This document shows, in pieces, positions 11,170 to 30,692 of a stretch of DNA of 32,000 nt (position 1 is its first letter; every line of letters starts with the position of its first letter). Source of the DNA: Ruminococcus albus 7 = DSM 20455. GTDB taxonomy: Bacteria; Bacillota; Clostridia; Oscillospirales; Ruminococcaceae. Position numbers and translations under genes: made by a program. The notes beneath the pieces were generated by a model. That model ran no database searches. It was not told the DNA's origin and worked only from the letters and a program-made list of their open reading frames with translations. The stretch spans positions 150,001 to 182,000 of the forward strand of contig NC_014825.1 of NCBI RefSeq assembly GCF_000179635.2. The letters are read 5' to 3'.

Positions 11170-12681
11170 ATGTCCGAACCAAATATGACATCGGAAATTG
11201 TATCGCTCCGTAATGAAAACGCTGTTCTCAAGGAAGAACTAGCACTTGCCAATCAGCAGTTAGCGTGGTTCAGAAAGCAGATATTCGGAAGAAAAACAGA
11301 GCAGACATCTGTTGTTATGGAAAAGGAGTTCGGTGTTCAGCTTTCCATGTTCGGAAACAATGAAGAAAAATCCGCAGCTAAATCTGCCGAAACAATTACT
11401 GTTCCCGAACACAAGCGCAAGAAAAAACGCACTCACGATGAATGGATGAACAATCTGCCTGTAAAAGAAGAACATCACAAAATTGACAACCCGGTATGCG
11501 AAATATGCGGCGCCGAAATGGAAGAACTGACTCCCGAAAAGGCTTACGATGAACTTATATTTACGCCGCCAAAATATCATATCCGCAGGCATATAGTACA
11601 TAAGTACAAGTGTCCCGAGTGCGGAGAAAAGCCCGAAGAAAGGGACGAACCTTGTCATATCATCCGTGCGCCATATCCTCACGCTATGATCCCGGGAAGC
11701 TATTGCTCTCCCGAACTTCTGGCTCATATCATCTACGAAAAATATGCAAAGTCAGTACCTCTGCACCGTCAGGAAAAGGACTTTAATTCCAAAAACATAC
11801 CTCTGCTCAAAGCGACTATGTCTAATTGGGTAGGCACTGCTGCCGAAAAATGGTGTTTGCCGATTGTGGAGAAAATGCATGAGATGCTTATCGCAGGGCA
11901 GATGATCCATGCCGATGAAACGACCGTTCAGGTGCTTCACGAGGAAGGCCGAAAGCCTACCACGACATCAAGAATGTGGGTCTACTGCAACGGCAAAATG
12001 AATGACAGGAGCATCATCATTTTCGATTATCAGCCGACACGAAAGGGTGAGCACGCCTCGAATTTCCTGAAAGGATTTATCGGCTATCTTATCTGTGACG
12101 GATACGATGCCTACAATGCAGTCGAGGGTGCTAAGCGATGCGGCTGTATGACTCATGCAAGGCGTGGTTTTATTCAGGCTCTTCCGAACGACCAAAAGCT
12201 GCACAGCACTTCTGTTGCGGCAAAGGCAGTAGAATATTTCAACAAGATATATCACGAAGAAAATCTGCTTGCCGACAGCTCCACAGAATACAGATATAAA
12301 CAGCGCCTTGTGAAGGTAAAGCCTTTGCTTGACGAGTTTTTTGCGTGGCTTGAAAATGTTCAGGTCAGTGGTAAGGGCAAGCTGACAGATGCAGTAAGAT
12401 ATGCGTTGAATGAACGGAAATATCTTTACACGTTTCTTGAAAACGGAGACGTGCCTATCGACAACAACAGAGCCGAAAACGCAATAAGACCGTTTGCGTT
12501 AGGCCGAAAAAATTGGCTGTTTTCAAATACAGCAAACGGAGCCAGATCAAGTGCAACGCTGTATTCGATCATTTCAACTGCACAGGCGAACGGTGTTGAT
12601 GCTGAGAAATACCTGACCGAGCTGTTTTCACAGCCTGCGGGAACGATATTATTACCATGGAGGGAAGAAAATGAAACTTAG
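11170..12681 (+). CDS. tnpC: IS66-family DDE transposase TnpC (intact, 503 aa)
   Basis: N-terminal coiled coil plus 'IFGRKTEQ', zinc-finger 'CEICGAEM...CPECGE', 'HADETTVQVL', 'LICDGYDAYN', 'MTHARRGF' and 'IDNNRAENAIRPFALGRKNWLFS'. Confidence 0.93.
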   Translation: MSEPNMTSEIVSLRNENAVLKEELALANQQLAWFRKQIFGRKTEQTSVVMEKEFGVQLSMFGNNEEKSAAKSAETITVPEHKRKKKRTHDEWMNNLPVKEEHHKIDNPVCEICGAEMEELTPEKAYDELIFTPPKYHIRRHIVHKYKCPECGEKPEERDEPCHIIRAPYPHAMIPGSYCSPELLAHIIYEKYAKSVPLHRQEKDFNSKNIPLLKATMSNWVGTAAEKWCLPIVEKMHEMLIAGQMIHADETTVQVLHEEGRKPTTTSRMWVYCNGKMNDRSIIIFDYQPTRKGEHASNFLKGFIGYLICDGYDAYNAVEGAKRCGCMTHARRGFIQALPNDQKLHSTSVAAKAVEYFNKIYHEENLLADSSTEYRYKQRLVKVKPLLDEFFAWLENVQVSGKGKLTDAVRYALNERKYLYTFLENGDVPIDNNRAENAIRPFALGRKNWLFSNTANGARSSATLYSIISTAQANGVDAEKYLTELFSQPAGTILLPWREENET

Positions 12682-13210
12682 TAATGAAGATGCAAAGCTG
12701 TTTTATGAACTGTTTTTTCCACTGCTTGACTATGTGAACAGAGAATATCATATACTTCCTGAGGAAGATTATTTCGGGCAAGGAATGATCGACCCACAGG
12801 ATGCTGCGGAGGTTGCCCACTTTTTATGGGAACGGACATGGATCATTGATGATTATCTTGAGCGATCGGATCTGCCCGAATAACACATGGAGATACTTAA
12901 AAGCTGGAAAGGGTGCATCACCGGCAGATTTATCATTGAGCGACATTTGAAAAAGGGATCGGTATTTATATCGATCGATGACAATTCTGTTTTTCTTGTA
13001 AACGGCATTGTCAGCAGTTGGGAGGAAATGCTGAGAAATGCACCGATGCCAACTTTGCTTGATGCAGCGCTTCTGCCATTTAAAAATGCGATCATTTCCG
13101 ATGGCCTTGTATCTGTTATGCCGATCATATTCGGTCCGAACAGCAAAGCTGATTTCAAAGAAATATACATGGACGCAAAGAGAAATGGAGAAATCAAAGC
13201 CAGAATATGA
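12671..13210 (+). pseudogene. Passenger ORF of IS66 no. 2 (unknown function), one reading frame interrupted by an in-frame TAA
   Basis: ORFs 12671-12883 and 12887-13210 are in the same frame, separated only by TAA at 12881-12883 ('...SDLPE*HMEILKSWKG...'). The start overlaps the tnpC stop by 11 nt. It lies inside the right IR and is followed by a terminator. Confidence 0.6.
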
Positions 13211-13215
13211 TGTTA

Positions 13216-13249
13216 CAGCCGGGTGTTATCTGCCCGGCTGTTTGCTTTT
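13216..13249 (+). terminator. Rho-independent terminator just inside the right IR of IS66 no. 2
   Basis: CAGCCGGG (13216-13223) pairs with CCCGGCTG (13233-13240), followed by TTTGCTTTT. Confidence 0.7.
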
Positions 13250-13274
13250 ATGATGCGGGGGGTTATACGCTTAC

Positions 13275-14914
13275 TGAAGAACTGAAAAAAGCATACGAAG
13301 AAATGTCAAAAAAGTGCGCTTTGCTTGAAAAAGAAAACGAGAAAAAAGATGAGACCATAGAGCATCTTGAAGAACTTCTTCTGAAAAGAAACAAGATGCT
13401 TTTCGGGCGTAAAAGCGAGAAGTCAAAATATTTGCAGTGTGACGGTCAGGAGAGCTTTGAAGGCGTGTTCAACGAAGCCGAAATGCTTTCCGATGAAGCT
13501 GCGGAAGAACCGACAGAGGAAACCATCGTTGTAAAAAGAAAGTCCCAAAAGACCGGTGAACACCGCGGCAAAAATAAGCTCAGAGAAGATCTTCCCAAAG
13601 AGAAGATCGTATCGAAGCTGCCCGAAAAACAAGTGTAACTGTGCTGTTTGCGGCAGTAAGCTCAAGGTCATCAAGGAAGAATTTCTGACAAGCAAACTTG
13701 TGTATATCCCCGAACAGCTGAAAATGCGTGAGTTTTACAGAACGGTGTACAAGTGTGAATGCTGCGATAAAAAGGGCGAGGATCCCCATATCGTCAAATC
13801 CGAAAACCCTACTCCCGCACAGGTCATACCGAAGGGTCTGCCGGATCAAACGCTTGTTGCGGATATAATGCAGAGAAAATATCAGCTTGGTACTCCGCTT
13901 GACCGTCAGGAAAAATACTGGGCGGCACAGGGGGTATATCTCAGCCGTACTTCAATGGCAAACTGGGTGATCGAGGGTTCAAAATGGTTTGAGCCTGTTA
14001 TTGATATGCTCTGGAAATATTCGTATAAAGAGCCTGTCCTGAATGCCGATGAAACGACGTCGAGAACTTTGAAAACCGATAAAGGCAAAAAAATAGACAA
14101 GCTGGGTCAGATGTGGATATGCTCGACAGGCAGAGCCGCAAAGAAAAAAATTGCAATATACGAGTACCGTGACAGTCGCACAAAGGCTGTTGCCGAGGAG
14201 CTTTACTATGGCTATACGGGCATATTGCAGACTGACGGATTTCAGTCCTATGGCAGCGGCAGCTACACGAGAGTCGGCTGCTGGTCGCATGCACGCAGGA
14301 AGCTGATCGACTGCATACCCGAAAAGCACAAAAAGAGCAAAGCGGCGATCGCTGTGGGTATGATCGACAAGATGTTCAAATACGAACGGGAGGCGAGAAA
14401 GGAAGACTATTCGGACGAACAGCTGCTTGAGATGCGTCGGGAAAAGATCGCCCCTCTTGTAGATGAGTTCTACAAATTCATAGACAGCCTTCACCCCGGC
14501 AATGGTTCACACTTAGCCGAGGCGGTTAATTATGCCCGAAATCAGAAAGCAGCACTGACTGTTTTCCTAAATAATCCACTTGTGGATATGAGCAACAATC
14601 TTGCAGAGAGAACAGTCAAGCCTTATATTATTGCAAGGAAGAATTTTCTTTTCAGCTGTACCGAGAAGGGTGCTCACGCAAGCGCGGCGGTTATGACAAT
14701 TATCGAGACAGCTAAGCGAAATGGTCTTGATGTGTACGGGTATCTCCTGCATCTGCTGACAGAGCTGCCGAAGTACGGTCATACTCCGACAAGGGAACAG
14801 CTTGAAGCTCTGATGCCGTGGAGCGACAGCCTGCCTGATTTCTGCAAGAAAAAGTATAGTCAGGTAGAGTCAGTTACAATACCGGAAATGAGTCTATGCA
14901 AAGCAAAGGTGTAG
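13275..14914 (+). pseudogene. tnpC: IS66 TnpC of element no. 1, split by IS66 no. 2 and additionally frameshifted
   Basis: The first 5 codons (GTG ACA TAT GAA GAA) are at 10255-10269. Removing 10271-13282 restores VTYEELKKAYEEMSKKCALLEKENE...LFGRKSEKS. A second lesion gives 'LPEKQV*' versus '..PKNKCNCAVCGSKL', with the frame change at the A5 run 13625-13629. Downstream motifs are intact (NADETTSRTL, LQTDGFQSY, CWSHARRK, MSNNLAERTVKPYIIARKNFLFS). Confidence 0.88.
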
Positions 14915-15350: not shown

Positions 15351-15459
15351 TGTATATGCCGACCCCAAAACCGCAGCTGCACGGACTCGGAACCGCACTC
15401 TCACGCATTTTGAACCGCATCGTGCCGCGATAGAACCGCATCGACATATTTAACGTATC

Positions 15460-15493
15460 AAAAATGGAGCCCGCCTGAACTCAGACAGGCTCC
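15460..15493 (-). terminator. Terminator after the IS21 gene set
   Basis: On the minus strand GGAGCC..CAGG pairs with CCTG..GGCTCC (15466-15493), followed by ATTTTT. Confidence 0.55.
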
Positions 15494-15506
15494 CCGTTAA
15501 AGTTGA

Positions 15507-15704
15507 TCAGATTTCCGGATAGTCTATCTCATTCTCATCAAGAATAGCCTTGAGCCGGTCGATATACTCATACAGCCGCTGGATCTCTATCCAGTTGCCG
15601 TGACACAAGTGTTCGGCTTCCGCAAGCTCGTGACGGGTGAGCAGATAATCCTCCCATTTCAAGCACTTGTGATCCTTGCTGAAAGCACAGTAATTCTCCA
15701 TCAC
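15507..15704 (-). CDS. Small 65-aa ORF downstream of istB, inside the IS21 boundaries (unknown function)
   Basis: Its ATG overlaps the istB stop (ATGA at 15701-15704). It is followed by a terminator, and all of this lies inside the terminal repeat. The sequence is acidic with Cys/His residues (C6, H12, C14, H33, C34, H35). Confidence 0.5.
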
Positions 15705-16468
15705 GGTTCAGCTCCTTCCGGAAGCCCATGACGTTTTCTCATGGATATTTCACCATCGATCATTACCGGATATGCGGTATTGATTATCCTGTCGATTATC
15801 GCATCGGATATCGGACTGTCGTTTTCAGGATCGGGATTTATGCGTTCGTACCAGCCCTCGGCATGGTACTGTGTGCAAAAAATCATCGACTTTTCGATCC
15901 TTGCTTCGATGATCTCCAGCAGATTGTAGGCATCATTCGGAGCAAGCTTGCGGATAAGCCACTCGTCGAGGATCAGCAGATCGACTTTCTTGTATGCTTT
16001 GATTACCTTAGCAAATTCCCCGTTTGTTCTTGCAATGGAGAGTTCATCAAGCAGCTCCGGAAGTCTTATGTAGCGCACCGACTTGAACTTACGGCAGGCG
16101 GCATTTCCGAGAGCGCAGGCGACGTAAGTTTTTCCATTGCCCGATGCACCCATAAGGATAATATGCCTACCCTCGTCAACATAATTGCAGGTCGCAAATC
16201 GAAGCATTTTGCCTTTGTCGAGATGTCTGTCCTCAATGTATTCAATACCTTCAATGGTTGCATTAGCATCGGAGAAATGAGCGTTCCTGATGTATCTTAC
16301 GAGCTTGTTGTTCTGCCTGCGGTTCCATTCGGCATCAACAAGAAGTGTAAGTCTGTCCTCGAAACCAAGCTGTTTGTAGCTGTCGGCATCTTCAAGCTGA
16401 CGTTCAAGCTCGGCAGCCATTGAATTCATCTTCATAGCTCTTAAACACTCAATTGTGCTGTTGATCAT
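15701..16468 (-). CDS. istB: IS21 helper ATPase IstB
   Basis: Walker A 'GASGNGKTY', Walker B 'DLLILDEW', and the N-terminal '[16 protein letters not shown]' typical of IstB. It overlaps the istA stop by 4 nt. Confidence 0.93.
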
Positions 16469-17385
16469 TTGCTACCACCTACCTTTCTCCAGTAGGCGGC
16501 ACCGCGTGTGATGCCATATTTGTTGCTGTCATCGGTCTTTTCCGTGGGTTTGTCAGGCTCTTTGTTGTTTTTCAGCAGCGTTGTTATCGTGCGTATCGAA
16601 GGAGATGACGAGAACGCCAGCATACGCTCACAGGCGGCTTCAAGTTTCTTCTTTCCGTAACGCTTACCGAGCTTCGTTAGGCTTACACAGGCCTTGTACC
16701 CCTGTTCGGGAACGCTGCCGGAGGTCAGGAAATGCTTCACGACTTCCTCAACGGATTTGCCAACCGTTGACGCCCATTCCTTGAATTCATCGGCATTGTA
16801 GTTCAGATACTCGCGGTGATTCGTCGGCATATGCTCAGGTTTCACGACAGGCTGAACGCTGTACTTTTCAAGTCGCTTGTGTGAAGTCATGCGGCTACCT
16901 TTGAAATACACCTCAATCAGATCTTTGGTCAGGCGTATCTGCACCTGATCCCCGATAAGGTCAAAAGGAACAGAATATTTATTCAAGCCGTCCGAGATCA
17001 GATAGTCGTTCCCGACAGTCTGCTGTTTCCACACAGAGGGCTCATATCTGTGCTTAGGCAGCGGCAGCATGAATTCCTTTTCCTCAGATAGATATGCTTC
17101 TCTACGGTTTCCGGAACGTTTCTGAAATGGCTTTGTATTGACATATTCGAGGCGCTCGTCAACAGCCTCTCTGACCTCTGCAAAAGAGAAAAACTTACGC
17201 TCACGAAGTGCGGCGGTTATCCATGTTGTAGAGAATCCGACCGAGCGTTCAACGAACCCTTTATCCTGCGGCTTGCGAACTCTGGCAGGAACAATGGCTG
17301 TGCCGTAATATTCCGCAAGTTCACGGTAACTCTCGTTCAGCTGCGTTTCATAGCGAGTGTTCGCCGTCACACCGGTTTTGAGATT
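16465..17385 (-). pseudogene. istA: IS21 transposase IstA, C-terminal part (split by RIT insertion)
   Basis: It reads ...L-K-T-G-V-TANTRYETQLNESYRELAEYYGTAIVPARVRKPQDKGFVE..., continuing exactly from '...VLVPDNL' of the 20840-21469 part once 17386-20845 is removed. Confidence 0.9.
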
Positions 17386-17466
17386 TAATGTAAAGAGGAT
17401 GTTAATGTAAAGCTGAATAAAAATAGATCTAAAATCTAATGATTATAGGTATTCGACTTTACATTA
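17380..17466. repeat. RIT left-end recombinase-site cluster
   Basis: The 10-bp half-site TAATGTAAAG occurs at 17386-17395 and 17403-17412 (direct). The inverted copy CTTTACATTA is at 17457-17466. Confidence 0.85.
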
Positions 17467-17478
17467 ATATGATATAAT
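17450..17478 (+). promoter_or_regulatory. Possible promoter of the recombinase trio, overlapping an inner half-site
   Basis: Extended -10 TGaTATAAT (17470-17478) with a weak -35 around 17450-17457 (TTCGAC). Half-site 17457-17466 lies in the spacer. AAAGGAGG is at 17494-17501 and the ATG at 17511. Confidence 0.4.
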
Positions 17479-17510
17479 TGGATCAATCATAGAAAGGAGG
17501 AATTATCATC

Positions 17511-18743
17511 ATGATTGATTCCAGTTACTCAATGACACTGTATGATGCAATCCAACTGTTTCAAAGACACATCATACAAAACTACGGATCTGAATCCAAA
17601 ACAGCACAGGCTTACATTCGGATCTCTAATGATTTACAGCGGTATGCTAAAGGAACGGATTTGGAGGTTTCTCCGGAAGATGTGATCCAAGAATACTATC
17701 GTATTATCGTCGGGGTCCCTGCATTTGAAGCTGTTCCGTCAAAATCAAAAGAACGTCGAGGAAGAGCTGTTCAGATGATTCTGGATATCCTTAATGGAAA
17801 AGAACCTAAGAGAAAGTATACCACCCATAAGCGTGATTGTCCCATTACGTACCTGAATGTCATCAGAAAATATGAAACTTTCATGAGAAATGACCAAAAG
17901 AGCGATGGCACAGTACGCACGAGATCCGGACGAATCACTGTGTTTTTTGCTTTTCTTGAGGAGTGTAAATGTACATCATTAGAGGGCATCACGCCGGAGC
18001 TGTTTGCAAGATTTGTATCGTCCCTCAATGATAGGTATTCATCACAGGGAAAAGCGTCCATTTTGTATACGTTAAGGAATTTCTTTTCCTATGATGAGTT
18101 CTCAGGAGCGCTATCTTTCGATCCGATTCCCTTTTTGACAGGGATTCATTCCGGAAAGCATGAAAGACTCCCATCCTTTTACACGGCAGAAGAAGTAAGG
18201 CGTATCCTGAATGCTGTCGACAGGAATACCCCATGGGGAAAAACAGTCTATCTTATGATGCTTTTGGCAAGTGTGTACGGTTTTCGCTCAAGCGATATCA
18301 AAGCAATGGTTCTTGACAATATAAACTGGAAAAATCGCACAATAAATATCACGCAGTACAAGACGCACAAAGAGATTTCCCTTCCCATGACAGATGAGAT
18401 CCTTTTTGCACTCCTTGACTATATTAAGAATGTGCGTCCTGAGTCAGACTGTTCGAATGTGTTCATCCGACTTAGAAAACCGTACATTGCATACTCAATG
18501 AATGATCACTTTGGCGACAAGATATTACCGTTTTTTGAAATTGCCGGTGTTGATACAAAAGGTAAACATCATGGTCTGCATTCTTTAAGGCATAGTTTGG
18601 CAACAAACCTTTTGGTTTCAGGAACCCCGATAAATGAGATTGCTGTGATACTTGGACACACATCTGCGGCATCCACAAAAACTTATGTATGGTCAGATAT
18701 AGAGCATCTCCGAGCAGCAGCATTGGAGGTGCCTAAAAAATGA
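17511..18743 (+). CDS. Tyrosine recombinase, first of trio (410 aa)
   Basis: C-terminal catalytic motifs 'HGLHSLRHSLATNLL' and 'ILGHTSAASTKTYV' (R..HxxR..Y). It also has an N-terminal SAM-like/core-binding-type region. Confidence 0.9.
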   Translation: MIDSSYSMTLYDAIQLFQRHIIQNYGSESKTAQAYIRISNDLQRYAKGTDLEVSPEDVIQEYYRIIVGVPAFEAVPSKSKERRGRAVQMILDILNGKEPKRKYTTHKRDCPITYLNVIRKYETFMRNDQKSDGTVRTRSGRITVFFAFLEECKCTSLEGITPELFARFVSSLNDRYSSQGKASILYTLRNFFSYDEFSGALSFDPIPFLTGIHSGKHERLPSFYTAEEVRRILNAVDRNTPWGKTVYLMMLLASVYGFRSSDIKAMVLDNINWKNRTINITQYKTHKEISLPMTDEILFALLDYIKNVRPESDCSNVFIRLRKPYIAYSMNDHFGDKILPFFEIAGVDTKGKHHGLHSLRHSLATNLLVSGTPINEIAVILGHTSAASTKTYVWSDIEHLRAAALEVPKK

Positions 18744-19720
18744 TCAATGACAAGGAATTTCTTAAATTTGAAGAAGGTTTTTTCAAACCATATTTTGAAA
18801 AATTCATAGAGTTCAAGCGTGGAAAAGGTGAAAAAGTTGCTCATTCAACCATGGTTCGCTTAAGGAAACTGAACAATTCGCTTAATACTTACTATGAACA
18901 CCATATATCTGACCAGATGGTGGAGGAGTTACTGGCTCCTCGTGATGGATTAAGCGAATTAGAACGCCAATATCTTACAGCGAATCTCCGCCAGTTTTGT
19001 TCTTTCTTGGCGCTTCTCGGAATTGATGCGGTCATCGTCCCACGAAAATATATGCGAACGGTAAAGAGTGAATTTCGTCCGTACATTTTCAGCGACGATG
19101 AACTGCGCCGTCTGACTATTGCAGCCGACACGCTTCCTGCATCAAGAAAGTCGAGCTCGCATCAGCAGATATACCCAGTGCTCGTCAGATTACTTATAGG
19201 TACCGGAATGCGCATAGGCGAAGTCCTTGCACTGAAGCGGGCGAATGTTGACACTTCAAACGGTGTGATCAATGTTATCAACGGTAAAAATGGCGTTTCA
19301 AGATTTATTCCTGTATCCGACAGCTTGAAAGAAGTCCTATTTGACTATGCCAAGACTATAGATATGTCTGATGAGAATAGACCGTTTTTCACTTCCTCCT
19401 ACACCGGTGGTCATCTTACATATGATGCTATGAAATATATGTTTCCAAAGATGTTTAAGACGGCAGGCATACACAAGTCAGATGGTAAGACGCCAAATAT
19501 CCATTCTATCCGGCATACATTCTGCACCAAAAGTCTGGAAAAAATGTTGGAAAACGGAATGAATGTCTATACTGCTATTCCAATACTGGCGGCATACGTC
19601 GGACATGTGAATTACATAGATACAGAAAAATACATTCATTTCACAGAACAGGGACATACGGATTTCTTGCAGAAAGAATCATCCTTGGGGAGTCTATTCC
19701 CGGAGGTGGACAATGAGTGA
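18740..19720 (+). CDS. Tyrosine recombinase, second of trio (326 aa)
   Basis: 'GTGMRIGEVLALK', 'IHSIRHTFCTKSL' and 'YVGHVNYIDTEKYIH'. ATGA overlap with the upstream gene. Confidence 0.9.
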   Translation: MINDKEFLKFEEGFFKPYFEKFIEFKRGKGEKVAHSTMVRLRKLNNSLNTYYEHHISDQMVEELLAPRDGLSELERQYLTANLRQFCSFLALLGIDAVIVPRKYMRTVKSEFRPYIFSDDELRRLTIAADTLPASRKSSSHQQIYPVLVRLLIGTGMRIGEVLALKRANVDTSNGVINVINGKNGVSRFIPVSDSLKEVLFDYAKTIDMSDENRPFFTSSYTGGHLTYDAMKYMFPKMFKTAGIHKSDGKTPNIHSIRHTFCTKSLEKMLENGMNVYTAIPILAAYVGHVNYIDTEKYIHFTEQGHTDFLQKESSLGSLFPEVDNE

Positions 19721-20734
19721 TAATTTATTCTTCTATATACAACGATATTTTATGTCTTACCTAATGAAACAGCATAATTACGGCCCTAATACTGTTTCAT
19801 CATACCGAGACACCTTTAAGCTTTTGCTTAAATTTATGTCAGAATCCGGTAAAAGCATATCAAAGAAAACTGTTGATGAGATTGACTGCGATGTAGTACT
19901 CAAGTTTCTCTCTTGGCTTTCGAATGTCAGGAAAAATGGGGTGCCTACCCAAAATGTAAGATTGGCACATATAAAATCATTTTTTCGATATGTAATGATG
20001 ATCTCACCTGAATACTCCGGGCAATGCAGCGAAATACTCAGTATACCATTTGCAAAGGAAGATAAAAGGCTTCCTGATTGTATGTCTACGGATGCTATAA
20101 AGCAAATGCTTTCATCGATCGACTCATCATCTAACGAGGGACTAAGGCATTTGGCAATCTTATCCCTTATGTACGATTCAGCTTGTAGGGTTCAGGAAAT
20201 CATTTCACTAGATGTCAAAGACTTTCAGCCGGGTCAATGCTGCAGGATATATGTGCATGGTAAGGGAAATAAATATCGCACCATTCCGTTACTGGGAAAA
20301 ACAGAAAAAATCATCTCAAAATATATCAGGCAATTCGGTCTTATGCAAGAGTCCCCAATGTTTTGCAACAGGAATGGTGACCGGCTAACAAGGCAAGGCA
20401 GTCCGCGTACATAATAAGGAAATACTCTAAGTTGGCAAACGATACGGTTCCCGGTATTATAACCGGCTCTGTATACCCACATCGATTACGCCACAGTAAA
20501 GCCACACACCTTGTGGACAATGGCGTAAACATTTATAATGTCAGGGATTTCTTGGGACATGAGTCTGTTGCAACAACTCAGATTTACCTGTCAACGAATC
20601 CGGAAGTTATCAGAAAGGCTATCGAGACAGTAGCTGAGAAAACAGTATCAGAAAGCCTTGATTTCTTTTCAGACAAAGAAAAGGACGATTTTGATTTCCT
20701 TCTTGGATTCACTAGGATAACACGCATTTGTTAA
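19713..20734 (+). pseudogene. Tyrosine recombinase, third of trio, frameshifted
   Basis: ORF 19713-20414 ('...[15 protein letters not shown]') and ORF 20432-20734 ('[27 protein letters not shown]...[14 protein letters not shown]') join as ...[21 protein letters not shown]... The frame change must lie within 20381-20411. Confidence 0.8.
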
Positions 20735-20845
20735 TGTAAAGTAGGTCATGATGGAATGCCGATCAGACTTTCATTGAAACGGCCGACTTTACATTAACAT
20801 CCTCTTTACATTAAATCTCTAATGTGAAGCTTTACATTAGAGATT
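20732..20845. repeat. RIT right-end recombinase-site cluster, including two complete core-type sites
   Basis: Half-sites: TAATGTAAAG 20732-20741; CTTTACATTA 20787-20796 and 20804-20813; TAATGTGAAG 20820-20829; CTTTACATTA 20830-20839. The segment 20804-20829 reads CTTTACATTA-AATCTC-TAATGTGAAG (10-6-10). Confidence 0.85.
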
Positions 20846-21469
20846 ATCCGGAACCAAAACTCTTGTCACACCATCGAAGTATTCATAAGCGTGAATGTGG
20901 CACATGAGCCAGTTCTCCTGCTTCATGTCGGTGCAGGCTTCAACGTAAAGATAACTGCTGCAAGGCAATGCTGCTACGAAGATGTAAGCCTTGTACTCCT
21001 CACCTGTAACGCTGTCAAAGTACGGAATAGTGCCGCCTGCCCAATCTACCTGCATAACATCTCCAGGCTTATGCGTTACACGCATGGTAGCTTTAGTTAC
21101 ACGAGCCCAGCGACGGTATTTGTCACCGAACTGGGTGCTCATGTAGGGTGTTTCACCGTTTGCATAGGCATGCTCACAGTATTCATTCCAGAGTAGTGTG
21201 AGTGTCACACCTTTCTTGGACAGCTCACGGTGGATGTAGTCGTAATCTGGCTCTGCATAATGACTTCCGGCTGTTCTCCTTTCCGGATAGAAAAGCTTTT
21301 CAAGCTCAGCATTAGTCACATCCTCATCGATAGGCCATTCCACTCCATGCTTTGCAGCAAGTTCCAGAACATTCTTGACGGTATGATGAGAATGCCCCAC
21401 TCTTGCAGCGGTCTGTCTCAAGCTGTATCCCATACTGGTAAGCCTGAGTATTTCTTTGTAGTCCACCAT
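20840..21469 (-). pseudogene. istA: IS21 transposase IstA, N-terminal part (HTH and start of the DDE domain)
   Basis: 'MVDYKEILRLTSMGYSLRQTAARVGHSHHTVKNVL' is the HTH and 'MQVDWAG' a DDE-region motif. The frame ends '...VLVPDNL' and then runs into a TAA supplied by the RIT end. Confidence 0.9.
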
Positions 21470-21613
21470 ATGATAGACCTCCTTGATATGTAGTCACGTC
21501 ATTGACGCGCCATATCAAGTATATCATATTTTGCCGGGCAGTGCCCGTGGGCAGTCAGCGGCGAGATGTGGCAAAATATCCGTGCAGTTGTGGCAGTGTG
21601 GGCGGGATATACA

Positions 21614-21872
21614 TGAGTTTTAGCTCTGTGCGCAACTGTTTTAGCCGATCACCGACGGTCTGATTACTTGGATACATCTCTCCAGTGCCATCCATAAACC
21701 ATTCCTTGTTAACGCGAGTGCCTTTTAGAATTCTGCTAATACTATCTTCAGAAAAATTGGTTTCTCCATTTTCTAAGCGCGATTCAAGAGATGCAGACAT
21801 ATTGCAAAGCCTTGCAAAAACGGCAACAGTCATTTTATTGTGTTCTCTTAACTGTTTTAGCCTGTACTTCAT
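21614..21872 (-). pseudogene. XRE-type HTH regulator, 3' end truncated by IS21
   Basis: 'LKQLREHNKMTVAVFARLCNMSASLESRLENGETNFS' is HTH_3-like. A second repeat begins 'VGDRLKQLRTELKL' and is cut at the IS21 terminus. The last 19 codons of ORF 21555-21872 are IS-derived. Confidence 0.55.
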
Positions 21873-22483
21873 CGGTTCTTGTCAAGCCTCTCAATCTCAT
21901 CTATCAGCTCAAGTAGCTCATCCATACTTTCCCCATTATACCAAATCGCTTTCATCCCGACAGCTTCAGCACCTTTGACGTTCTTCTCGCTGTCATCGAT
22001 GAACACGCATTCTGACTTTTCTAGCCCATACCGCTCACACAGTATCTCATATATCCGCTTATCAGGCTTCACAACGTGCTCATAGCAGGAGAACACGCCG
22101 CCATCGAAGTGTGGGAGAAAGTTGAGTGGGAACACGTGCATCAGGTACTCGAAGTAGTTGGAGAGGAAGAAAATCTTATAACCTTTTGATCTCAGGGTTG
22201 TGATCAACGGCACAGTGGATGCTTTATCACGCGGACACTCACCGAGTTTGGAGAAGATGAGTCTGATCTCGGCTTCGTAGTTCGGAGCAGAGCTAATGAA
22301 CAACTTGAGAACTTCTTCATCAGTCATGCTCCCCTTATCAAACTCCACCCAGTCTGGATTGCGCCACATAGCTCTAGTCACGATATCGGCTGTTTCGGGA
22401 TCTAAGTATTTAGCTACGAAACTGTCCCAATCGAAATCCGTCAGAACGCCGCCGATGTCGAAGATTATAGAAGTTTTAGGCAT
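21869..22483 (-). CDS. HAD-superfamily hydrolase (subfamily IA-like phosphatase)
   Basis: Motif I 'IIFDIGGVLTDFD', then 'FFLSN', 'K', and motif IV 'CVFIDDSEKNVKGAEAVGM'. Confidence 0.8.
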   Translation of the reverse strand: MPKTSIIFDIGGVLTDFDWDSFVAKYLDPETADIVTRAMWRNPDWVEFDKGSMTDEEVLKLFISSAPNYEAEIRLIFSKLGECPRDKASTVPLITTLRSKGYKIFFLSNYFEYLMHVFPLNFLPHFDGGVFSCYEHVVKPDKRIYEILCERYGLEKSECVFIDDSEKNVKGAEAVGMKAIWYNGESMDELLELIDEIERLDKNR

Positions 22484-22658
22484 GGGTGGTGGCTCCTTTC
22501 TTGTATTCGGACTTCATATAAGAGTGATGTATAGCATAGCGAAGAGGTAGATGGCGAATAGGAGGTGGATGAAGTGCGGATTGATTATCTTTTTCATATG
22601 GCTTTAGTATAACCACAGAGAGTGTGTTTTTGTCAAGAGCTGTAGCCATCTGGAGCAG

Positions 22659-22937
22659 TCACTCTTTTGCCCAGGCATTATTGTCCAATATCTCTTCTAT
22701 TTTATCAAGATCTCTGCTTGCTATACGTGGATTCAATCCTTCTCTAACCTTATATTTCGCTAGATCATTCATATCGAATGAAGGGTTTTCTACGGTAAAT
22801 GCTTTGCATAAATCCCATAGCACATTTCCGTATCCAAGGTCTTTGGGATGGATGCAAACCTGCGTGTACTTTTCGCTATTACTCGGCAAGTGCATCCGTT
22901 TCATCAACTGACGAAATCGTTCCTTATAATCTTCCAT
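22659..22937 (-). CDS. Hypothetical protein (92 aa from the RBS-supported ATG)
   Basis: AAGGAGAAGG precedes the internal ATG at 22937 (MEDYKERF...). The longer ORF from 22982 lacks an RBS. No recognisable motif. Confidence 0.5.
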   Translation of the reverse strand: MEDYKERFRQLMKRMHLPSNSEKYTQVCIHPKDLGYGNVLWDLCKAFTVENPSFDMNDLAKYKVREGLNPRIASRDLDKIEEILDNNAWAKE

Positions 22938-23011
22938 TACCTTCTCCTTTAAATCAACAAATTCTATTAAAATGGTAACCACACTGGTTCGTACACTTGT
23001 TTCAGGGTAAC

Positions 23012-24304
23012 TTAATCCCTTCGGAACAGATCCCTTGTATAGACCTTATCAGCCACATCATCAAGACAAGAATCATATCTGTTTGCAATGATAGCAGCAG
23101 AACGCTTCTTGAACTCTTCGATGTCGTTAACCACAAGGCTGCCGAAGAACGTCTCACCATCCTGTAAAGAAGGCTCATAGATAATTACAGTTGCACCCTT
23201 AGCCTTGATACGTTTCATAACACCCTGAATAGAACTCTGACGGAAGTTATCGGAGTTTGACTTCATGGTAAGACGGTATACACCGATGACAACTTCCTTC
23301 TCTTTCGCTCTATCAAAATCATCAGAACCTTCATAGGCACCGACAATCTCAAGCACACGCTCAGCGATAAAGTCTTTTCTTGTCCTGTTGCTCTCAACGA
23401 TTGCTCCAATAAGATTCTGTGGAACATCAGCATAGTTAGCGAGAAGCTGTTTGGTGTCCTTCGGTAGACAATAACCGCCGTAGCCAAAGGAAGGATTATT
23501 GTAGTGTGTGCCAATACGAGGATCCAAGCACACACCATTGATAATTGCCTGTGTGTCTAAGCCTTTCATTTCAGCGTATGTATCCAGTTCGTTGAAGTAT
23601 GACACGCGGAGTGCAAGATAAGTATTCGCAAACAGCTTGACTGCCTCTGCCTCTGTTGTTTCCATGTATAAAGTAGGGATGTTCTCTGCAATTGCTCCTT
23701 GTTGGAGAAGATCTGCGAAGGTGTGAGCTGCATTGCAACAGATCTCATCGTCCTGTGGAAAACCCACGATAATGCGGCTCGGATAGAGATTATCGTAAAG
23801 AGCCTTTGACTCACGGAGGAATTCAGGTGCGAAGATAATGTTCTTACCAACTTCTCCGTAGAGGCTAATATAGTGCTCTGTGATCCTCTTTGTATAGCCG
23901 ACAGGAATTGTGGATTTGATGATAATCACAGGGTGTTCCTCACGACTTTTGCCCTTGTTTGATTCAAAAACAAGATCCATGGCTGCTTCAACATAAGATG
24001 TATCGAAGAAATTTTTCTTGCTGTCGTAATTTGTAGGGGTTGCTATGATGATGAGTTCGGCAGAACTGTAGGCTGATGCTCCGTCAAGTGTAGCGGTCAA
24101 ATCAAGGTTGCTGTCCTTGCCACCTGCTGTTTTTCCTTCTGTGAGGTATCTCTCGATCTCATCGTCCTGAATCGGGGATATATGATTGTTGATCTTTTCT
24201 ACCTTTTCAGGGACAACATCAACTGCTGTCACATGGTTATGCTGTGCGAGAAGCACAGCAAGGGAAAGACCGACATAACCAGTTCCTGCAACTGCTATAT
24301 TCAT
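23012..24304 (-). CDS. ugd: UDP-glucose 6-dehydrogenase (HasB/Cps3D-like)
   Basis: '[20 protein letters not shown]' is the NAD-binding fold. Other motifs are '[24 protein letters not shown]', '[28 protein letters not shown]', '[22 protein letters not shown]' (catalytic Cys) and '[15 protein letters not shown]'. Confidence 0.92.
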
Positions 24305-24336
24305 ATATGTATTACTCCTTTACTGTTATGTGGTTC

Positions 24337-24846
24337 TCAATTAGTAGCAGAATATTTAATAGGACAAACTTCCACACACTTGTAGCACCGAATACAGAGA
24401 CTTGCATCCAATACCGGATAAAGAAAGCCTTCCTCGTCTTCTTCCATAAAAATTGCACCATGTGGCAGGTCATATTTCTCACCGAAACTTCCAACAGAAT
24501 CTTTGCCGCTATTAAGCAACAATCCTTTTACGGTGCAAACAGCATAACAGGCGGTACATCCACAGCAATTCTCTCGAATGTTATATAGTTCCGGAAGTTG
24601 CTTATCAGTTTCAATCAAGCTCTTTGTTTTAGGGCTATAAGCTAATGGAATACCGTTTGTTCCTATTTTTATATTTTTATAACGTGTTGAAATATGTGGC
24701 TGATAACAAGTCTGGTCTTGAGGCTTCGGTTGTTGTTCATCCGGTAAAAAAGAGCCATCTGCATACTGATAAACCTTGGTACCGGCAGGCACATCATCGT
24801 ACTCATGAGATGAGTTAACACGAGTTATTCTTTTCATTTCTATCAT
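24337..24846 (-). CDS. 2x[4Fe-4S] ferredoxin-domain protein with a ~85-aa N-terminal extension
   Basis: 'CCGCTACYAVC' (CxxCxxCxxxC) and 'CIRCYKCVEVCP' flank 'EEDEEGFLYP'. This is the arrangement normally found at the N-terminus of FrhB-like proteins in EPS loci. The better-spaced start is ATG 24837. Confidence 0.75.
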   Translation of the reverse strand: MIEMKRITRVNSSHEYDDVPAGTKVYQYADGSFLPDEQQPKPQDQTCYQPHISTRYKNIKIGTNGIPLAYSPKTKSLIETDKQLPELYNIRENCCGCTACYAVCTVKGLLLNSGKDSVGSFGEKYDLPHGAIFMEEDEEGFLYPVLDASLCIRCYKCVEVCPIKYSATN

Positions 24847-25814
24847 CTCCTAAGTAATTTATGTGCTAAACGTATTGCGAATTGTTTACTCTTATTGATA
24901 AAGCCAAAATTAGTGTATTTCTTTGCGAGATAATCAAAATTTTGCATATAAAAGTCTTTCCAAAACTGATACCGATTATCTGGAAACGGAAAAGGTGCTT
25001 TCAAAGGCGGTTGTAAACTCTTTTCAATATCACATTCCTTATAATCTAAACTATCATTAACAGCATTGAACATATTATTTCCTAATTCATCATTAACAAG
25101 AACTAATGAAACACCTTTGTTATCATCAAAGCCCGGTGCGGCATTTTGAATTCCCCAATAATCTGCAATAGTTATATTTCCAGGATGCATTATAGATTTA
25201 TAAGGACATCTGTGACAACAAGGCCTGAGTATATCATGGCCATAAAACAATTCCTTAAAAACATCACTATCCACTCTTGAATTGTTCTTCATATATAATG
25301 ATTCAACATGAGCTGCCCAGCCAAACTCTCTTTTATTTCTAAAATCAACATTATCTATCTGACTATTGGCTCTTTCCTCTTGCCATTTTATATAATTGAC
25401 CCAGATAAGTGGACTTGGAACTCCGTGACATACAATGTCAACACAAATCAGATTGGAATACTCTTGTCCCAAAAACAATTGCAATCCAGCTACTTGGCAA
25501 GAAGTGCCTGAAAACAACACTTGCTTATTGGCTTTCAGATCGTCTTCCACCAATTCAAATACATTTCCTAATGAACTTTGAATATACTTAGAGCCGCGCA
25601 TCCTGTCTCGTTCTTCTTTTGAAGTGGCACGAATATGCTTTGCCAACAAGTCATCAGTCAAAATGCATCCATATACGACACCATTTCTATCCAACACATA
25701 ATCTGACAAAGCCGTAAAGATTCCTCCTGAACGTGATGCCATTCGGATCCGCTCATCTTTATGCTTTACAGCAAATACAAGTGGAACATTATATTTATCC
25801 AAGACGTTATTCAC
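24843..25814 (-). CDS. Coenzyme F420 hydrogenase/dehydrogenase beta-subunit-like (FrhB/FdhB-family) protein lacking its usual Fe-S N-terminus
   Basis: 'RMASRSGGIFTALSDYVLDRNGVVYGC', 'FSGTSCQVAGLQLFL' and 'VDIVCHGVPSP'. The family is commonly paired with polysaccharide pyruvyl transferases. Confidence 0.7.
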   Translation of the reverse strand: MNNVLDKYNVPLVFAVKHKDERIRMASRSGGIFTALSDYVLDRNGVVYGCILTDDLLAKHIRATSKEERDRMRGSKYIQSSLGNVFELVEDDLKANKQVLFSGTSCQVAGLQLFLGQEYSNLICVDIVCHGVPSPLIWVNYIKWQEERANSQIDNVDFRNKREFGWAAHVESLYMKNNSRVDSDVFKELFYGHDILRPCCHRCPYKSIMHPGNITIADYWGIQNAAPGFDDNKGVSLVLVNDELGNNMFNAVNDSLDYKECDIEKSLQPPLKAPFPFPDNRYQFWKDFYMQNFDYLAKKYTNFGFINKSKQFAIRLAHKLLRR

Positions 25815-27313
25815 ACCTCTTTTCTCTTTGAGCGTTTCAATGATTTTATCATTTCAAAACAAGTTGGGTTGATTATTAGATTCATGAGCGTTCCTATTGC
25901 CCCTATCACAAGAGTCAAAACAATGCCAGCAAGCAAAAATGTAGGAATATTTGCAATCTCAAAGTCTATAACCTTATCTAGGATAACAACTATGATAAAT
26001 AATAGTATGTTAGATCCAATGATAGTAATAGACTTTCTATAAGATCTATGCATAACCTTCTTGTCACTGATATAAGTTGTATAGATGATTTTAAGAGGAA
26101 GCGCAATAACAGTTGCAAACAGAACACCCACAATTCCAAATTTAAGAACAAGAATGATAGACAGCGTAATGTTAGTTATTGCTTCAATAAGTGAAATACG
26201 ACTCGTTGGTTTTGCATAGCCGGCTACACCTGTCAAGTTTCCTTGAATGTATCGACTCCATGAAAGAATCTGAACTAAACAAAACATGATAGGTAATTCC
26301 GAGTAAAGATAATTGACATCGGCAATACTACGCGTATACATAGTAATGAAAGGAATTGTTAGGACATACGCAACAGACATTAGTATGGTCATAGAACCGA
26401 TAAATACAGACATAAACGCATCATGAACCTTTTCATATACAGATAGTCCTTCATGATACTTCACTCCTAAAGTGTAATTGATGCTGGAATATATAGCATT
26501 TAATAGCGTGTTTATACTCACAAAGACCATATTATAAACTGAATATACACTTGACAAAGTGGTGCTGACAAATACAGAAAGAACAATTAAGTCTGTTGAT
26601 GAGAATATTGTCCATGCAATTTCTGTAATGATATAGGAATTCCTGTCATTCAGTTTTGCAGTTTTGGGTGCAGCCTTCTCATTGATCCAAGCGTAATTCT
26701 TCCTGAAATAATAGCGATAGAAAGCCACTTTTCCAATCGTTAAAAGTAAATAGCAAGCCTGTAAAATAACAATGCTAATGCCATTTAAAGCTAGTATAAT
26801 TCTGATTATATAGGACAAAACCTTATAAACCAGATCAGTAATACCATTAATGTATTCCTTTCCATCCGTATTAAGCGTAACTTTAACCGTTTGAACATAA
26901 TAAAATGAAAGAACAGAAGAAGCGCCTTCCAACAGAATGACAAGGAATATTGTCTTATAATCAACTTCTGTCTTTAATACAATCGGTGCTACAACAGCCA
27001 ATGTACAAACTGCCAAGCCATAGATTAATGTCAGTTTTCTATAATAATTCATAGCTGCTGAAACAATAAACGATACACCATCATGGTCATTATCATGAAT
27101 AGGCTTATATAATGCATTTCTCGCAGCTTGTCCAATTCCAGCTTCGAGTAGTGCCATATAGGTGAATATTTGCGTTAAAGTGGTGAGCAAGCCGTTTATG
27201 TCAGAGCCATAACTCGATATAAAGATTCTTGGTACGATTAATCCAAGAATCATGGTAATGAACTGCCCTACAAAACCTATAGTTGCATTCTTTAATAAAT
27301 TTTTCTTATTCAT
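25811..27313 (-). CDS. Polysaccharide flippase (Wzx-like, MOP superfamily)
   Basis: A 500-aa polytopic membrane protein (many hydrophobic segments) inside a glycan locus. The N-terminal 'LLKNATIGFVGQFITMILGLIVPRIFI' is typical of the family. Confidence 0.65.
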   Translation of the reverse strand: MNKKNLLKNATIGFVGQFITMILGLIVPRIFISSYGSDINGLLTTLTQIFTYMALLEAGIGQAARNALYKPIHDNDHDGVSFIVSAAMNYYRKLTLIYGLAVCTLAVVAPIVLKTEVDYKTIFLVILLEGASSVLSFYYVQTVKVTLNTDGKEYINGITDLVYKVLSYIIRIILALNGISIVILQACYLLLTIGKVAFYRYYFRKNYAWINEKAAPKTAKLNDRNSYIITEIAWTIFSSTDLIVLSVFVSTTLSSVYSVYNMVFVSINTLLNAIYSSINYTLGVKYHEGLSVYEKVHDAFMSVFIGSMTILMSVAYVLTIPFITMYTRSIADVNYLYSELPIMFCLVQILSWSRYIQGNLTGVAGYAKPTSRISLIEAITNITLSIILVLKFGIVGVLFATVIALPLKIIYTTYISDKKVMHRSYRKSITIIGSNILLFIIVVILDKVIDFEIANIPTFLLAGIVLTLVIGAIGTLMNLIINPTCFEMIKSLKRSKRKEV

Positions 27314-27326
27314 CTTAGTTCAGTCA

Positions 27327-28570
27327 TCAATTGCTTTTCAACTCTTGTAGAAGTAACTCTTTAGATGTCTCTACATAATTAATAAGCCTTTCGTAATTAA
27401 CCTTATTGGGGTCGATATAAATCATTCCGTTTTCGCTATAATTGTAATTAATTTCGTTTAATAAATCACATATTCTGTCTTTTAAATCATTAGTTCCGTT
27501 AAAAATCACCGGCTTTTTATAGATTAAGCCAAAGGCAAAGGCATGAAATGAATTTGTAACAATGACTTTAGTTTCATAAATTAAGCTGAGAAATTCGCTC
27601 GGTCCAACATCATTTCTTATATCAATCAAATTACTAGTTGACCTATTTTGGCAGGTTGGATGAATACCAATAATTCTGAGATTCTTTTCGGAAGCAATTT
27701 TGATTGCTTGTTCATCCAACTCTTTATCAGAGCGCAATAAATAATATAATATAAAACATGGTTATCCCTTTAACACACCATTAAAAAGTGCTATATAACA
27801 ATGAATCATCGTGTTGATGTTATCCTTCCCCCGCCGCAGGCGGGGGAAGGATAACCGCCGAGTATTTCTAGTTCTTATATTACACCAAATTAATTGGTGT
27901 GTAAACGGGATAATCAGAATATAAAATTATCCTCTTTTACATTCTCGTTCTGAAAATTTAACCATTCATCTAATGATAGCAAAAAAACAGGATCGATTAC
28001 TAAATCCGAGTTTATATGTGATAGATTTAAAATATTTACGCCAAATCTCTCACGAACACTTACCCACGAAAACAAGGGGAGATATTTTTTTATATTCTCA
28101 GATATTTCATTAGATATTCTTTTATTGCCAAAACTAGCAGCATATGAAATACTCATTTTTTCTGAATCTACAAAAGAAAGAAAATATGGAGAAGAATCGT
28201 TAAGGAAGGCATCATTCCAAACCTGATCGCTACCTGTAATAAAGCAGTCAAAATCACTGTTTAATAATCCCAGCTTATCCTTGGTGACATTATCCGTAAT
28301 AGTAAGATTGTTAATTACAAAATTATCAAACAGGGCATACTGTCTCTTTCGCTTAAAAAACAGCTTGGCTTTCCCCAGTATTTCTCCTTTACTTCGAGAA
28401 TCAAATGGATTCAAGGAATACTCGTGATGCAACTCAGGAGGATAATAATTAATGATTTTTACATTATATGAATTGTTTGTTAAAAAATTAGACAGCGCTA
28501 ACGCTTGTAATACAGCACCATAATTGTATGCAAAATGAAAAGTTATGATGCCAATCCTATTTATCAACAT
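27327..28570 (-). pseudogene. Polysaccharide pyruvyl transferase, interrupted by a 161-bp MITE
   Basis: The N-terminal part 27914-28570 ('IGIITFHFAYNYGAVLQALAL') and the C-terminal part 27327-27737 are in frame once 27757-27926 is deleted (...EDNFILYYLLRSDKE...). Confidence 0.85.
27757..27917. mobile_element. MITE-like non-autonomous element (161 bp) with imperfect ~25-bp TIRs and an internal perfect hairpin
   Basis: 9-bp TSD AATATAAAA at 27748-27756 and 27918-27926. TIRs are GGTTATCCCTTTAACACACCATTAA (27760-27784) and the reverse complement of 27890-27915, GATTATCCCGTTTACACACCAATTAA. The internal stem is 17 bp with a 3-nt loop (27819-27855). Confidence 0.85.
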
Positions 28571-29735: not shown

Positions 29736-29791
29736 ATCTTCACCACCATATTTTTTTCTTCGGCAATAAAATACCGAAATAAGCGTCCGTT

Positions 29792-30682: not shown

Positions 30683-30692
30683 TTTGACCTCC

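Follow-up and report, generated by a model that had tools for sequence, protein, structure and literature searches.

The 32,000-nt stretch of Ruminococcus albus 7 analyzed here (NC_014825.1, positions 150,001 to 182,000; hereafter the window, whose own coordinates are used throughout) contains a recombinase-in-trio (RIT) element inserted in istA, the transposase gene of an IS21-family insertion sequence (IS). Taking the evidence jointly, we consider it probable that the element entered istA at the Asp/Asn-x codons by a tyrosine recombinase crossover within a 6-bp spacer, and that it did so through a palindromic junction formed by its own joined ends. The element belongs to a known class; what is new is a defined target, a readable site architecture, and rules that can be tested. 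Part of the end structure or of the target bias may already have been published.

The insert occupies window positions 17386 to 20845 (3460 bp) and splits the host gene as follows, where loci other than the window copy (W) are labeled L001 upward:

15459 to 21613, minus strand: host IS21-family IS, about 2.7 kb without the insert, delimited by homology to intact IS21 copies in L013 and L014 after removal of the insert.
15701 to 16468, minus strand: istB, 255 amino acids (aa), Pfam IstB_IS21 (E = 7.5e-48).
16465 to 17379, minus strand: C-terminal part of istA (K-T-G-V... onward; the C side), Pfam Mu-transpos_C_2, contiguous with the N-terminal part after removal of the insert.
20846 to 21469, minus strand: N-terminal part of istA (M1 ... 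V-L-V-P-D; the N side), weak Pfam rve match, supported by the reconstruction.

In silico removal of 17386 to 20845 yields ...CCGGATAATCTCAAAACCGGT... and an uninterrupted 515-aa IstA that contains VLVPDNLKTGV and reads ...VTRVLVPDNLKTGVTANTRYE.... As a protein query, the reconstructed IstA matched thousands of intact IS21 transposases, the best of them 89% identical, and the five loci encoding this best match (L013 to L017) provide real empty sites: they read GTACCGGAT AATCTC AAGACAGGTGTA, with one AATCTC and no insert. The initial annotation of this DNA had called the insertion precise and predicted that excising 3460 bp would regenerate a conserved IstA; both the reconstruction and the uninterrupted relatives, which agree with the proposed empty site, bear this out. 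The host has the gene content of the IS21 family, that is, istA (rve core plus Mu transposase C-terminal domain) followed by istB (an AAA+ ATPase). In istA, the insertion point directly follows the codon of the second catalytic Asp and precedes the Asn-x codons, and the sequence common to both junctions in the window is exactly 6 bp. For the window lineage the target consensus is 5'-GAY/AAYNNN/AAR-3' (slashes set off the 6-mer); written out for a window-type element, the target is GGTTCCGGATAATCTCAAAACCGGTG.

The two ends of the element are built from a small set of repeated parts:

17380 to 17385, plus strand: left junction 6-mer GAGATT, equivalent to AATCTC, the Asn-Leu codons on the istA strand; probably the target's own copy.
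17386 to 17412, plus strand: left terminal repeat, two direct copies of the 10-mer TAATGTAAAG with 7-bp spacing, putative recombinase binding sites.
17457 to 17466, minus strand: third 10-mer of the left end, inverted, 44 bp inward, just before TGATATAAT (17470 to 17478).
20732 to 20741, plus strand: inner 10-mer of the right end, mirror of 17457 to 17466.
20787 to 20813, plus strand: right terminal repeat, two 10-mers CTTTACATTA with 7-bp spacing.
20804 to 20829, plus strand: intact internal core site made of a 10-mer, AATCTC (20814 to 20819), and an inverted 10-mer; found in every complete relative.
20820 to 20839, plus strand: module M, a 20-bp near-palindrome TAATGTGAAG/CTTTACATTA, contributing two further copies of the 10-mer.
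20840 to 20845, plus strand: right junction 6-mer GAGATT beside M, probably carried in from the previous site; here identical to the target's.

The perfect 33-bp inverted repeat (17380 to 17412 and 20787 to 20819, 6-mer included) and the GAGATT at either junction had been noticed before and are present as described, but the repeats do not simply bound the element. The right arm stops at 20819, 26 bp before the host junction, and its outer six bases are AATCTC, the reverse complement of GAGATT; beyond it lie the palindromic module and the second GAGATT. There are thus three 6-mers: the left GAGATT, the internal inverted AATCTC, and the right GAGATT. The left end runs GAGATT, 10-mer, 7 bp, 10-mer, 44 bp, inverted 10-mer; the right end mirrors it up to 20813 and then continues with AATCTC, M, and GAGATT. 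Read from the N side of istA, the integrated copy is laid out as N-side flank, 6-mer, M, inverted 6-mer, repeat, three genes, repeat, 6-mer, C-side flank. All seven exact copies of TAATGTAAAG in the window fall within the two element ends (0.09 expected per window; none of 100 shuffles reached seven), an eighth copy has one mismatch, and the left-end arrangement is kept in relatives with 66 to 81% DNA identity to the element. The window copy and its relatives therefore supply the attB/attL/attR set that the initial annotation anticipated, base exact and sufficient to design a minimal recombination assay, except that attR is composite, consisting of the right repeat, the inverted 6-mer, the 20-bp palindrome, and a 6-mer.

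Between these ends lie three genes:

17511 to 18743, plus strand: ritA, 410 aa, Pfam Phage_integrase; 35% identity (E = 5e-55) to the first gene of the RIT trio on plasmid pHG1.
18740 to 19720, plus strand: ritB, 326 aa, Pfam Phage_integrase; best match is the second pHG1 gene (E = 6e-40).
19713 to 20734, plus strand: ritC, disrupted into open reading frames (ORFs) 19713 to 20414 and 20432 to 20734, Phage_integrase; the intact form, seen in copies that are otherwise identical, has 334 aa and 35% identity (E = 2e-70) to the third pHG1 gene.

All three are on one strand and belong to PF00589; ritA and ritB overlap by 4 bp (ATGA) and ritB and ritC by 8 bp. Reciprocal best BLASTP hits against the pHG1 trio pair A with A, B with B, and C with C in order, with cross-type matches at E = 1e-14 or weaker, and the search for a fourth ORF of ≥60 aa on the rit strand between the element ends found none; the element holds only the trio. 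Gene order, overlaps, the pHG1 matches, inverted repeats whose 33 bp fall within the 28 to 34 bp or so typical of RITs, and the length of about 3.5 kb all fit, and the window element is a RIT, as had been proposed. The initial annotation also listed three overlapping recombinase genes, each with an R..HxxR..Y motif, and this holds with one refinement: RitB has HSIRH...KYIHF and RitC HRLRH...QIYL in their translations, but window ritC keeps its motifs only out of frame. Across 29 homologues, RitA residues H357, R360, H383, and Y392 do not vary. The AlphaFold2 model of RitA, for which those 29 homologues were used (predicted local distance difference test score, 81), has four-helix bundles at residues 10 to 94 and 112 to 191, followed by a catalytic domain at 226 to 405. 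Two sequential core-binding domains are the hallmark of RitA, and RitC has been described as carrying an extra conserved C-terminal helix (PMC8138268); because the model has two N-terminal bundles, RitA appears to possess the double core-binding domain of RITs. Structural matches to the model are XerA, an integron integrase, XerH, and the Tn1549 integrase, over alignments of only about 300 of the 410 residues, and in NCBIfam all three proteins fall near Xer, below every curated cutoff.

Three single-base insertions interrupt window ritC (G at 20401, G at 20407, and T in a T-run at 20689). They are the sole differences, with no substitutions, from a 3431-bp contig seen in 17 sequencing runs, and could reflect either real inactivation and decay or an assembly error. 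With ritC broken, the window copy would need RitC in trans. Upstream of ritA, TGATATAAT reads, from its letters, as an extended −10 box in a layout kept in relatives, and the third left 10-mer beside this putative box would permit autoregulation. A sigma-70 consensus promoter scan gave no signal above shuffles and left the putative −10 box TGATATAAT uncalled.

To see how other copies are placed, we assembled relatives from a genome scan with RitA (ten loci), a metagenome scan with the pattern TAATGTNAAGCTTNACATTA (at least 120 loci), and exact-protein look-ups (about 60 further loci); the look-ups mostly gave unitigs of about 3.43 kb cut within the 30-bp repeat, which carry no flank information. 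A megablast of the element against a plasmid collection gave no match. The order flank, 6-mer, M, 6-mer, repeat occurs in 77 instances, and in complete relatives the far repeat follows 3420 to 3512 bp away and is succeeded by the third 6-mer. Of 31 loci tested by joining the two flanks with one 6-mer, 29 gave an ORF that crosses the junction; the exceptions (L072 and L097) have almost no far-side flank. The four long-read contigs each contain exactly one M.

Within the window lineage, all 35 distinct M-side junctions read ...Asp/Asn-x, and 27 of 31 repeat-side junctions read Asn-x/Lys or Arg of IstA-like proteins; the reconstructed targets are IstA by Pfam. The flanks of other copies show 6-bp AAYNNN junctions at the same codons, neither unrelated sequences nor duplications of variable length. 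M adjoins the N-terminal half of istA in all window-lineage copies, while the gene body occurs in both orientations at a ratio of about 1:1 (M before ritA, n = 29; M after ritC, n = 32). Ruminococcus albus AR67 has two 100% identical copies, in opposite orientations, in istA genes only 84% identical, and L003 and L129 lie in two copies of one IS21 with the element body inverted. Because of these pairs we regard the insertions as independent and recent rather than as one inherited IS21::RIT. An immobile element, carried along by IS21 copies that already contained it, would also place every copy at one position, by common descent, and the same IS21::RIT junctions do recur in several samples (L147 to L155). 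We nevertheless judge this very unlikely: there are 35 different N-side flanks, from IstA families that share little beyond the motif, the AR67 elements are identical in divergent istA genes and face opposite ways, the 6-mers vary from copy to copy, and some copies lie outside IS21 altogether (L158 to L161 and L201).

Two of these off-target junctions can be placed. The right junction of the L158 to L161 copy adjoins a KAP-NTPase (QatA)-QatB defense locus at AAAATA/AAAAGGGTTGTCGTA, which resembles istA C-side sequence, and the left junction of the L201 copy is next to a gene for an EF-G-like GTPase (AACACG/AAGCATCGG).

Sister lineages with the same M (L018, L021, L042, L053, L062, L066, L102, L106, L114, L126, and L132, from metagenomes and IMG/VR) hit other invariant motifs: IstA K-G-x-V/I-E, the IstB Walker A motif G-x-G-K-T, G-K-I-E-R of a Mu-type transposase, IS91 H-I-H, helicase and ATPase P-loops including the Walker A motif of a ResIII helicase, and, from translation alone, P-V-D-M-R-K-S-F of an IS66 TnpB-like protein. 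Spacer positions 1 and 2 are constant within each of these lineages and particular to it (CC, TT, TG, or CG). Published RITs interrupt IS66 tnpA, a Tn6049-like transposase gene, and radC (PMC2864759, PMC3414803), insertions that fit the pattern of targeting invariant motifs. On one HiFi contig of 1.13 Mb (L142:1270-8450), two RITs from different lineages occupy the same istA gene, one at D-N-M/K and the other 131 bp away at K-G-K-V-E-R.

What the 6-mer is can be read from copies in which its three instances disagree. Among 25 complete copies tabulated, all three 6-mers agree in 13 and the others differ in every combination. The flanking 6-mers are unequal in at least 10 relatives (L004, L009, L027, L105, and L141 to L143 among them), including isolate genomes (AACATG versus AACTGC in Butyrivibrio hungatei, L004; AACTGC versus AACATG in Hespellia stercorisuis, L009) and long-read contigs (AACCTG versus AACATG in L142; AACCTG versus AATCTT in L143). 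Positions 3 to 6 vary, whereas positions 1 and 2 are fixed in each lineage: AA in the window lineage, CC or TT in sister lineages. A staggered cut with an ordinary target-site duplication would account for the repeated GAGATT of the window, and for the identical 6-bp direct repeats flanking the insert in 13 of the 25 tabulated relatives, but because the two flanking 6-mers of one copy can differ we consider this reading ruled out for practical purposes, with a chance of being correct that is close to nil. The element encodes no DDE or other transposase, a third, inverted 6-mer lies inside it, and the M-side 6-mer changes while the flank stays constant. These comparisons support the 6-mer as a recombination spacer, which is how the initial annotation had read it on the grounds that a tyrosine recombinase exchange leaves one short sequence at both junctions. 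The crossover part of that argument stands on the unequal flanking 6-mers and the inverted third copy; the identity of the 6-mers in the window, by contrast, reflects movement between IS21 copies sharing a 6-mer and is no outcome of the exchange as such.

The unequal 6-mers also reveal a polarity. All 120 intact homologues of the ILTDNMKSVV IstA family carry Met as the residue after Asp-Asn, and all 118 of the window's IstA family carry Leu there, so that a foreign 6-mer can be recognized at the protein level; L004 was judged against an N-C-K-T-A-V-V-H family seen in L176, L204, and L205. Wherever a judgment was possible, the native residue is encoded by the 6-mer next to the bare repeat, whereas the M-side 6-mer is foreign in L009, L141/L144, L142, L027, and L004; none is foreign on the repeat side. 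For each of four 24-nt N-side flanks, identical copies are paired with two different M-side 6-mers. One long-read lineage has AACCTG beside M at four targets, while its far 6-mer follows the target, and each foreign 6-mer is the native 6-mer of another IS21 family in our data. It is therefore well indicated, if not proven, that the element brings along a 6-mer from an earlier site and leaves it between M and the flank on the N side. For the window, the M-side GAGATT is then most likely an import from an earlier site, and the GAGATT of the left repeat most likely the target's own. A search for excision footprints, that is, a non-native residue at D-N-x in an intact IstA, found none among 238 cluster representatives, although such representatives have little power for this purpose.

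M itself has a direction wherever it is not a perfect palindrome. On the rit strand the asymmetric module reads TAATGTGAAGCTTTACATTA both where it follows ritC (W, L003, and L147 to L152) and where it precedes ritA (L129), a fixed polarity with respect to the genes. This fits circular permutation of the element and not a simple inversion of the body in place, and from it we infer a form in which the ends are joined. The predicted joined-ends junction, CTTTACATTA-GAGATT-TAATGTAAAG, would share the arms of the internal core at 20804 to 20829, whose spacer runs opposite to the flanking GAGATT. M is retained in many sister lineages whose repeat half-sites differ, which suggests that repeat half-sites and M half-sites may be bound by different Rit proteins.

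From these features, a route for the element can be proposed. In the moving form, most simply a circle, the ends would be joined as repeat-6-M-6-repeat. This palindromic junction would hold two inverted cores, each with a 6-bp spacer between a repeat half-site and an M half-site, and either core could cross over with the target within the spacer, giving the two body orientations. The heterodimer-like asymmetry of the core, together with the conserved AA edge of the spacer, would place M on the N side, and spacer identity would be needed at only about two bases. The 6-mer of the earlier site would be carried to the next, as in Tn554 and in strand-biased circularizing elements; such a polar outcome would fit a reaction decided by a single strand exchange at the AA edge. 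Two simpler accounts were rejected. For the window's lineage, inversion in place was considered as an explanation of the two orientations, but M flips together with the body; formation of M anew at each insertion was set aside, since M varies at positions of its own, is unlike the repeat half-sites in many lineages, and retains its polarity.

Several points weigh against this joined-ends route. The excised junction repeat-6-M-6-repeat was absent from the 176 fetched loci and from IMG/VR. Few lineages are informative for the argument from fixed polarity, because M is a perfect palindrome in most copies. The evidence on 6-mer polarity is limited to five or six foreign 6-mers that show at the protein level, plus the four flank pairs, and several junction pairs come from short-read assemblies, which can join flanks of different copies across a 3.4-kb repeat. 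Finally, the model leaves the renewal of the element-borne 6-mers unexplained.

The same element and target could also be served by a single-stranded moving form, or by a reaction that halts after one strand exchange: the junction would fold into a hairpin whose stem carries one complete core, much as the folded attP of CTX phage or the attC of integrons does, exchange would take place at the AA edge of the spacer, and replication would complete the product. This would account for the need for a palindromic M and for the polarity, with the element's 6-mer beside M and the target's beside the bare repeat. The close structural matches of the RitA model include XerA, XerH, and an integron integrase bound to folded attC; a mobilome study recovered exonuclease-protected RIT DNA in which circle junctions were not detectable and proposed hairpin forms (PMC5737581), and multi-recombinase elements circularize with strand bias and carry 6 bp of the donor (PMC10214605). 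We regard this version as possible but would not bet on it: a double-stranded circle with two inverted cores yields the same integrated structure, the two body orientations are equal in number, with no strand preference visible, and the small polarity sample weakens this version as well.

The published speculation from exonuclease-protected DNA (PMC5737581) also favors a further form, a linear excised molecule with covalently closed hairpin ends, produced at the palindrome by a reaction like that of telomere resolvases, with no circle at all. A perfect or near-perfect palindrome at one end would suit it, as would some metagenome contigs in which M lies between two inverted copies of one target half (L075, for example). 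We think it unlikely. Each spacer is set 10 bp from the dyad axis, one on either side, whereas telomere resolvases make cuts 6 bp apart that span the axis; M retains its polarity relative to the body and occurs at either end, which circular permutation fits better than a fixed hairpin tip; and the contigs with palindromic flanks may be fold-back assembly artifacts at the 32-bp palindrome.

Such contigs belong to a wider group of odd forms: contigs with two modules (L034, L036, L095, L144, and L163), contigs without the module (L158 to L161 and L176), and a lone module between two inverted target halves (L023, L050, L075, L094, and L120). We first read them as recombination products between copies and then set them aside, as they may equally be short-read chimeras across the 3.4-kb repeat or the 32-bp palindrome; none was used as evidence. 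Their layouts match the products expected if the internal core of one copy recombined with the junction of another, assembly chimeras being equally possible. Similarly, L053 and L090 have an identical far-side flank and differing module-side flanks, either through recombination of IS21 copies by way of the element or as an assembly chimera. In L156 (1180 to 1290), a window-lineage locus, the N-side flank plus AACCTT is joined straight to the inner left end, and the module, 6-mer, and left repeat (about 65 bp) are gone.

Among known systems, the RITs of Cupriavidus metallidurans CH34 and Cupriavidus necator pHG1 are the closest: they have three overlapping tyrosine recombinase genes in the same order, about 3.5 kb of DNA, terminal inverted repeats of about 30 bp, and a palindrome overlapping the repeat at one end, a feature already remarked upon (PMC3414803). 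The window lineage differs in its hosts, gut and rumen Firmicutes, and is only 28 to 35% identical to pHG1. A tblastn search of plasmids with RitA matched hundreds of proteobacterial records, among them pHG1, a plasmid rich in RITs (PMC3414803, PMC2864759), whose overlapping trio encodes proteins of 420, 327, and 336 aa. Its end plan is alike but written in other half-site sequences, TAGCGC-(AAATGTGCTG CAGCACATTT)-GCGCTA-repeat ... repeat-TAGCGC (L140:3967-4027 and 7496-7536, NC_005241.1 at about 51.3 to 54.9 kb), with the palindrome at L140 positions 3967 to 3998 equivalent to window positions 20814 to 20845. Unlike the pHG1 element, the window element has half-sites that are all the same 10-mer and a base-exact target (istA D/N-x/K); target specificity, empty site, and mode of movement of RITs have been listed as untested (PMC10214605, Table 1). 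The pHG1 RIT interrupts a region flanked by other integrase-like genes.

Members of the Tn554 family are likewise tyrosine recombinase transposons that insert site specifically into a conserved gene (att554) with a 6-bp core and no target duplication, and in Tn554 6 bp of donor flank travel to the new site (PMC10214605). They differ in having two recombinases, TnpA and TnpB, with an unrelated nonrecombinase TnpC, in lacking terminal inverted repeats, and in carrying resistance genes; the window element, whose third gene is a tyrosine recombinase and which has 33-bp repeats, is not one of them. SE and GInt elements share the joint action of several tyrosine recombinases and a 6-bp carry-over with a polar outcome, but have four conserved genes (including Tfp/GinC and Srap/GinD), large cargo, and gamma- and betaproteobacterial hosts, with no palindromic module described; with only three genes between its ends, the window element falls outside this group too. 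The integrases of Tn916/Tn1549 and CTnDOT work through a circular intermediate with coupling sequences of 6 to 7 bp that may be heterologous. In CTnDOT about 2 bp of identity beside the first cleavage site suffices, which parallels the invariant AA of the window lineage. These elements, however, use a single integrase plus Xis, are conjugative, have loose AT-rich targets, and show both outcomes of coupling-sequence segregation, and a 3.46-kb element holding the trio alone is neither Tn916-like nor an integrative and conjugative element. Xer/dif, CTX phage attP(+), and the integron attC × attI reaction resemble the RIT in their Xer-like "simple" recombinases and in cores of two half-sites around 6 bp; the latter two use folded single-strand palindromes as substrates, resolved by replication, and are the template for the hairpin version above. 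They rely on host Xer or a single IntI, and a folded single-strand substrate for the window element would be hypothetical.

RIT elements are common in bacterial genomes. Their palindrome, previously unexplained, can now be read as a second half-site pair that gives each terminal repeat a complete core site, and dozens of independent insertions form a natural record of the orientation rules and of the polar 6-bp carry-over. The window lineage knocks out an IS21 transposase at its catalytic Asp, and sister lineages hit other invariant motifs of transposon proteins; because these motifs are the targets, RITs may both ride on and restrain ISs. A broader and more speculative reading, advanced here only tentatively, is that RITs are hyperparasites that home to invariant catalytic motifs (IstA D-N-x-K and K-G-x-V-E, IstB Walker A, IS91 H-x-H, and an IS66 TnpB motif) and copy themselves out via a hairpin core, with one strand exchange at the AA edge followed by replication. 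If true, the copy-out hairpin route would explain the polar hand-over of 6 bp between sites and would make RITs, with three dedicated recombinases, the third instance in nature of recombination on folded DNA, next to CTX phage and integrons.

As for the surroundings of the element, a 2311-aa ORF with no Pfam match (46 to 6981) and two IS66-family transposase ORFs (11170 to 14914) lie on one side of the IS21::RIT, and a polysaccharide synthesis cluster (UDP-glucose dehydrogenase, glycosyltransferase, and nucleotidyl transferase; 21869 to 31843) lies on the other. Given these neighboring ORFs, we place the IS21::RIT in a patch of ISs.

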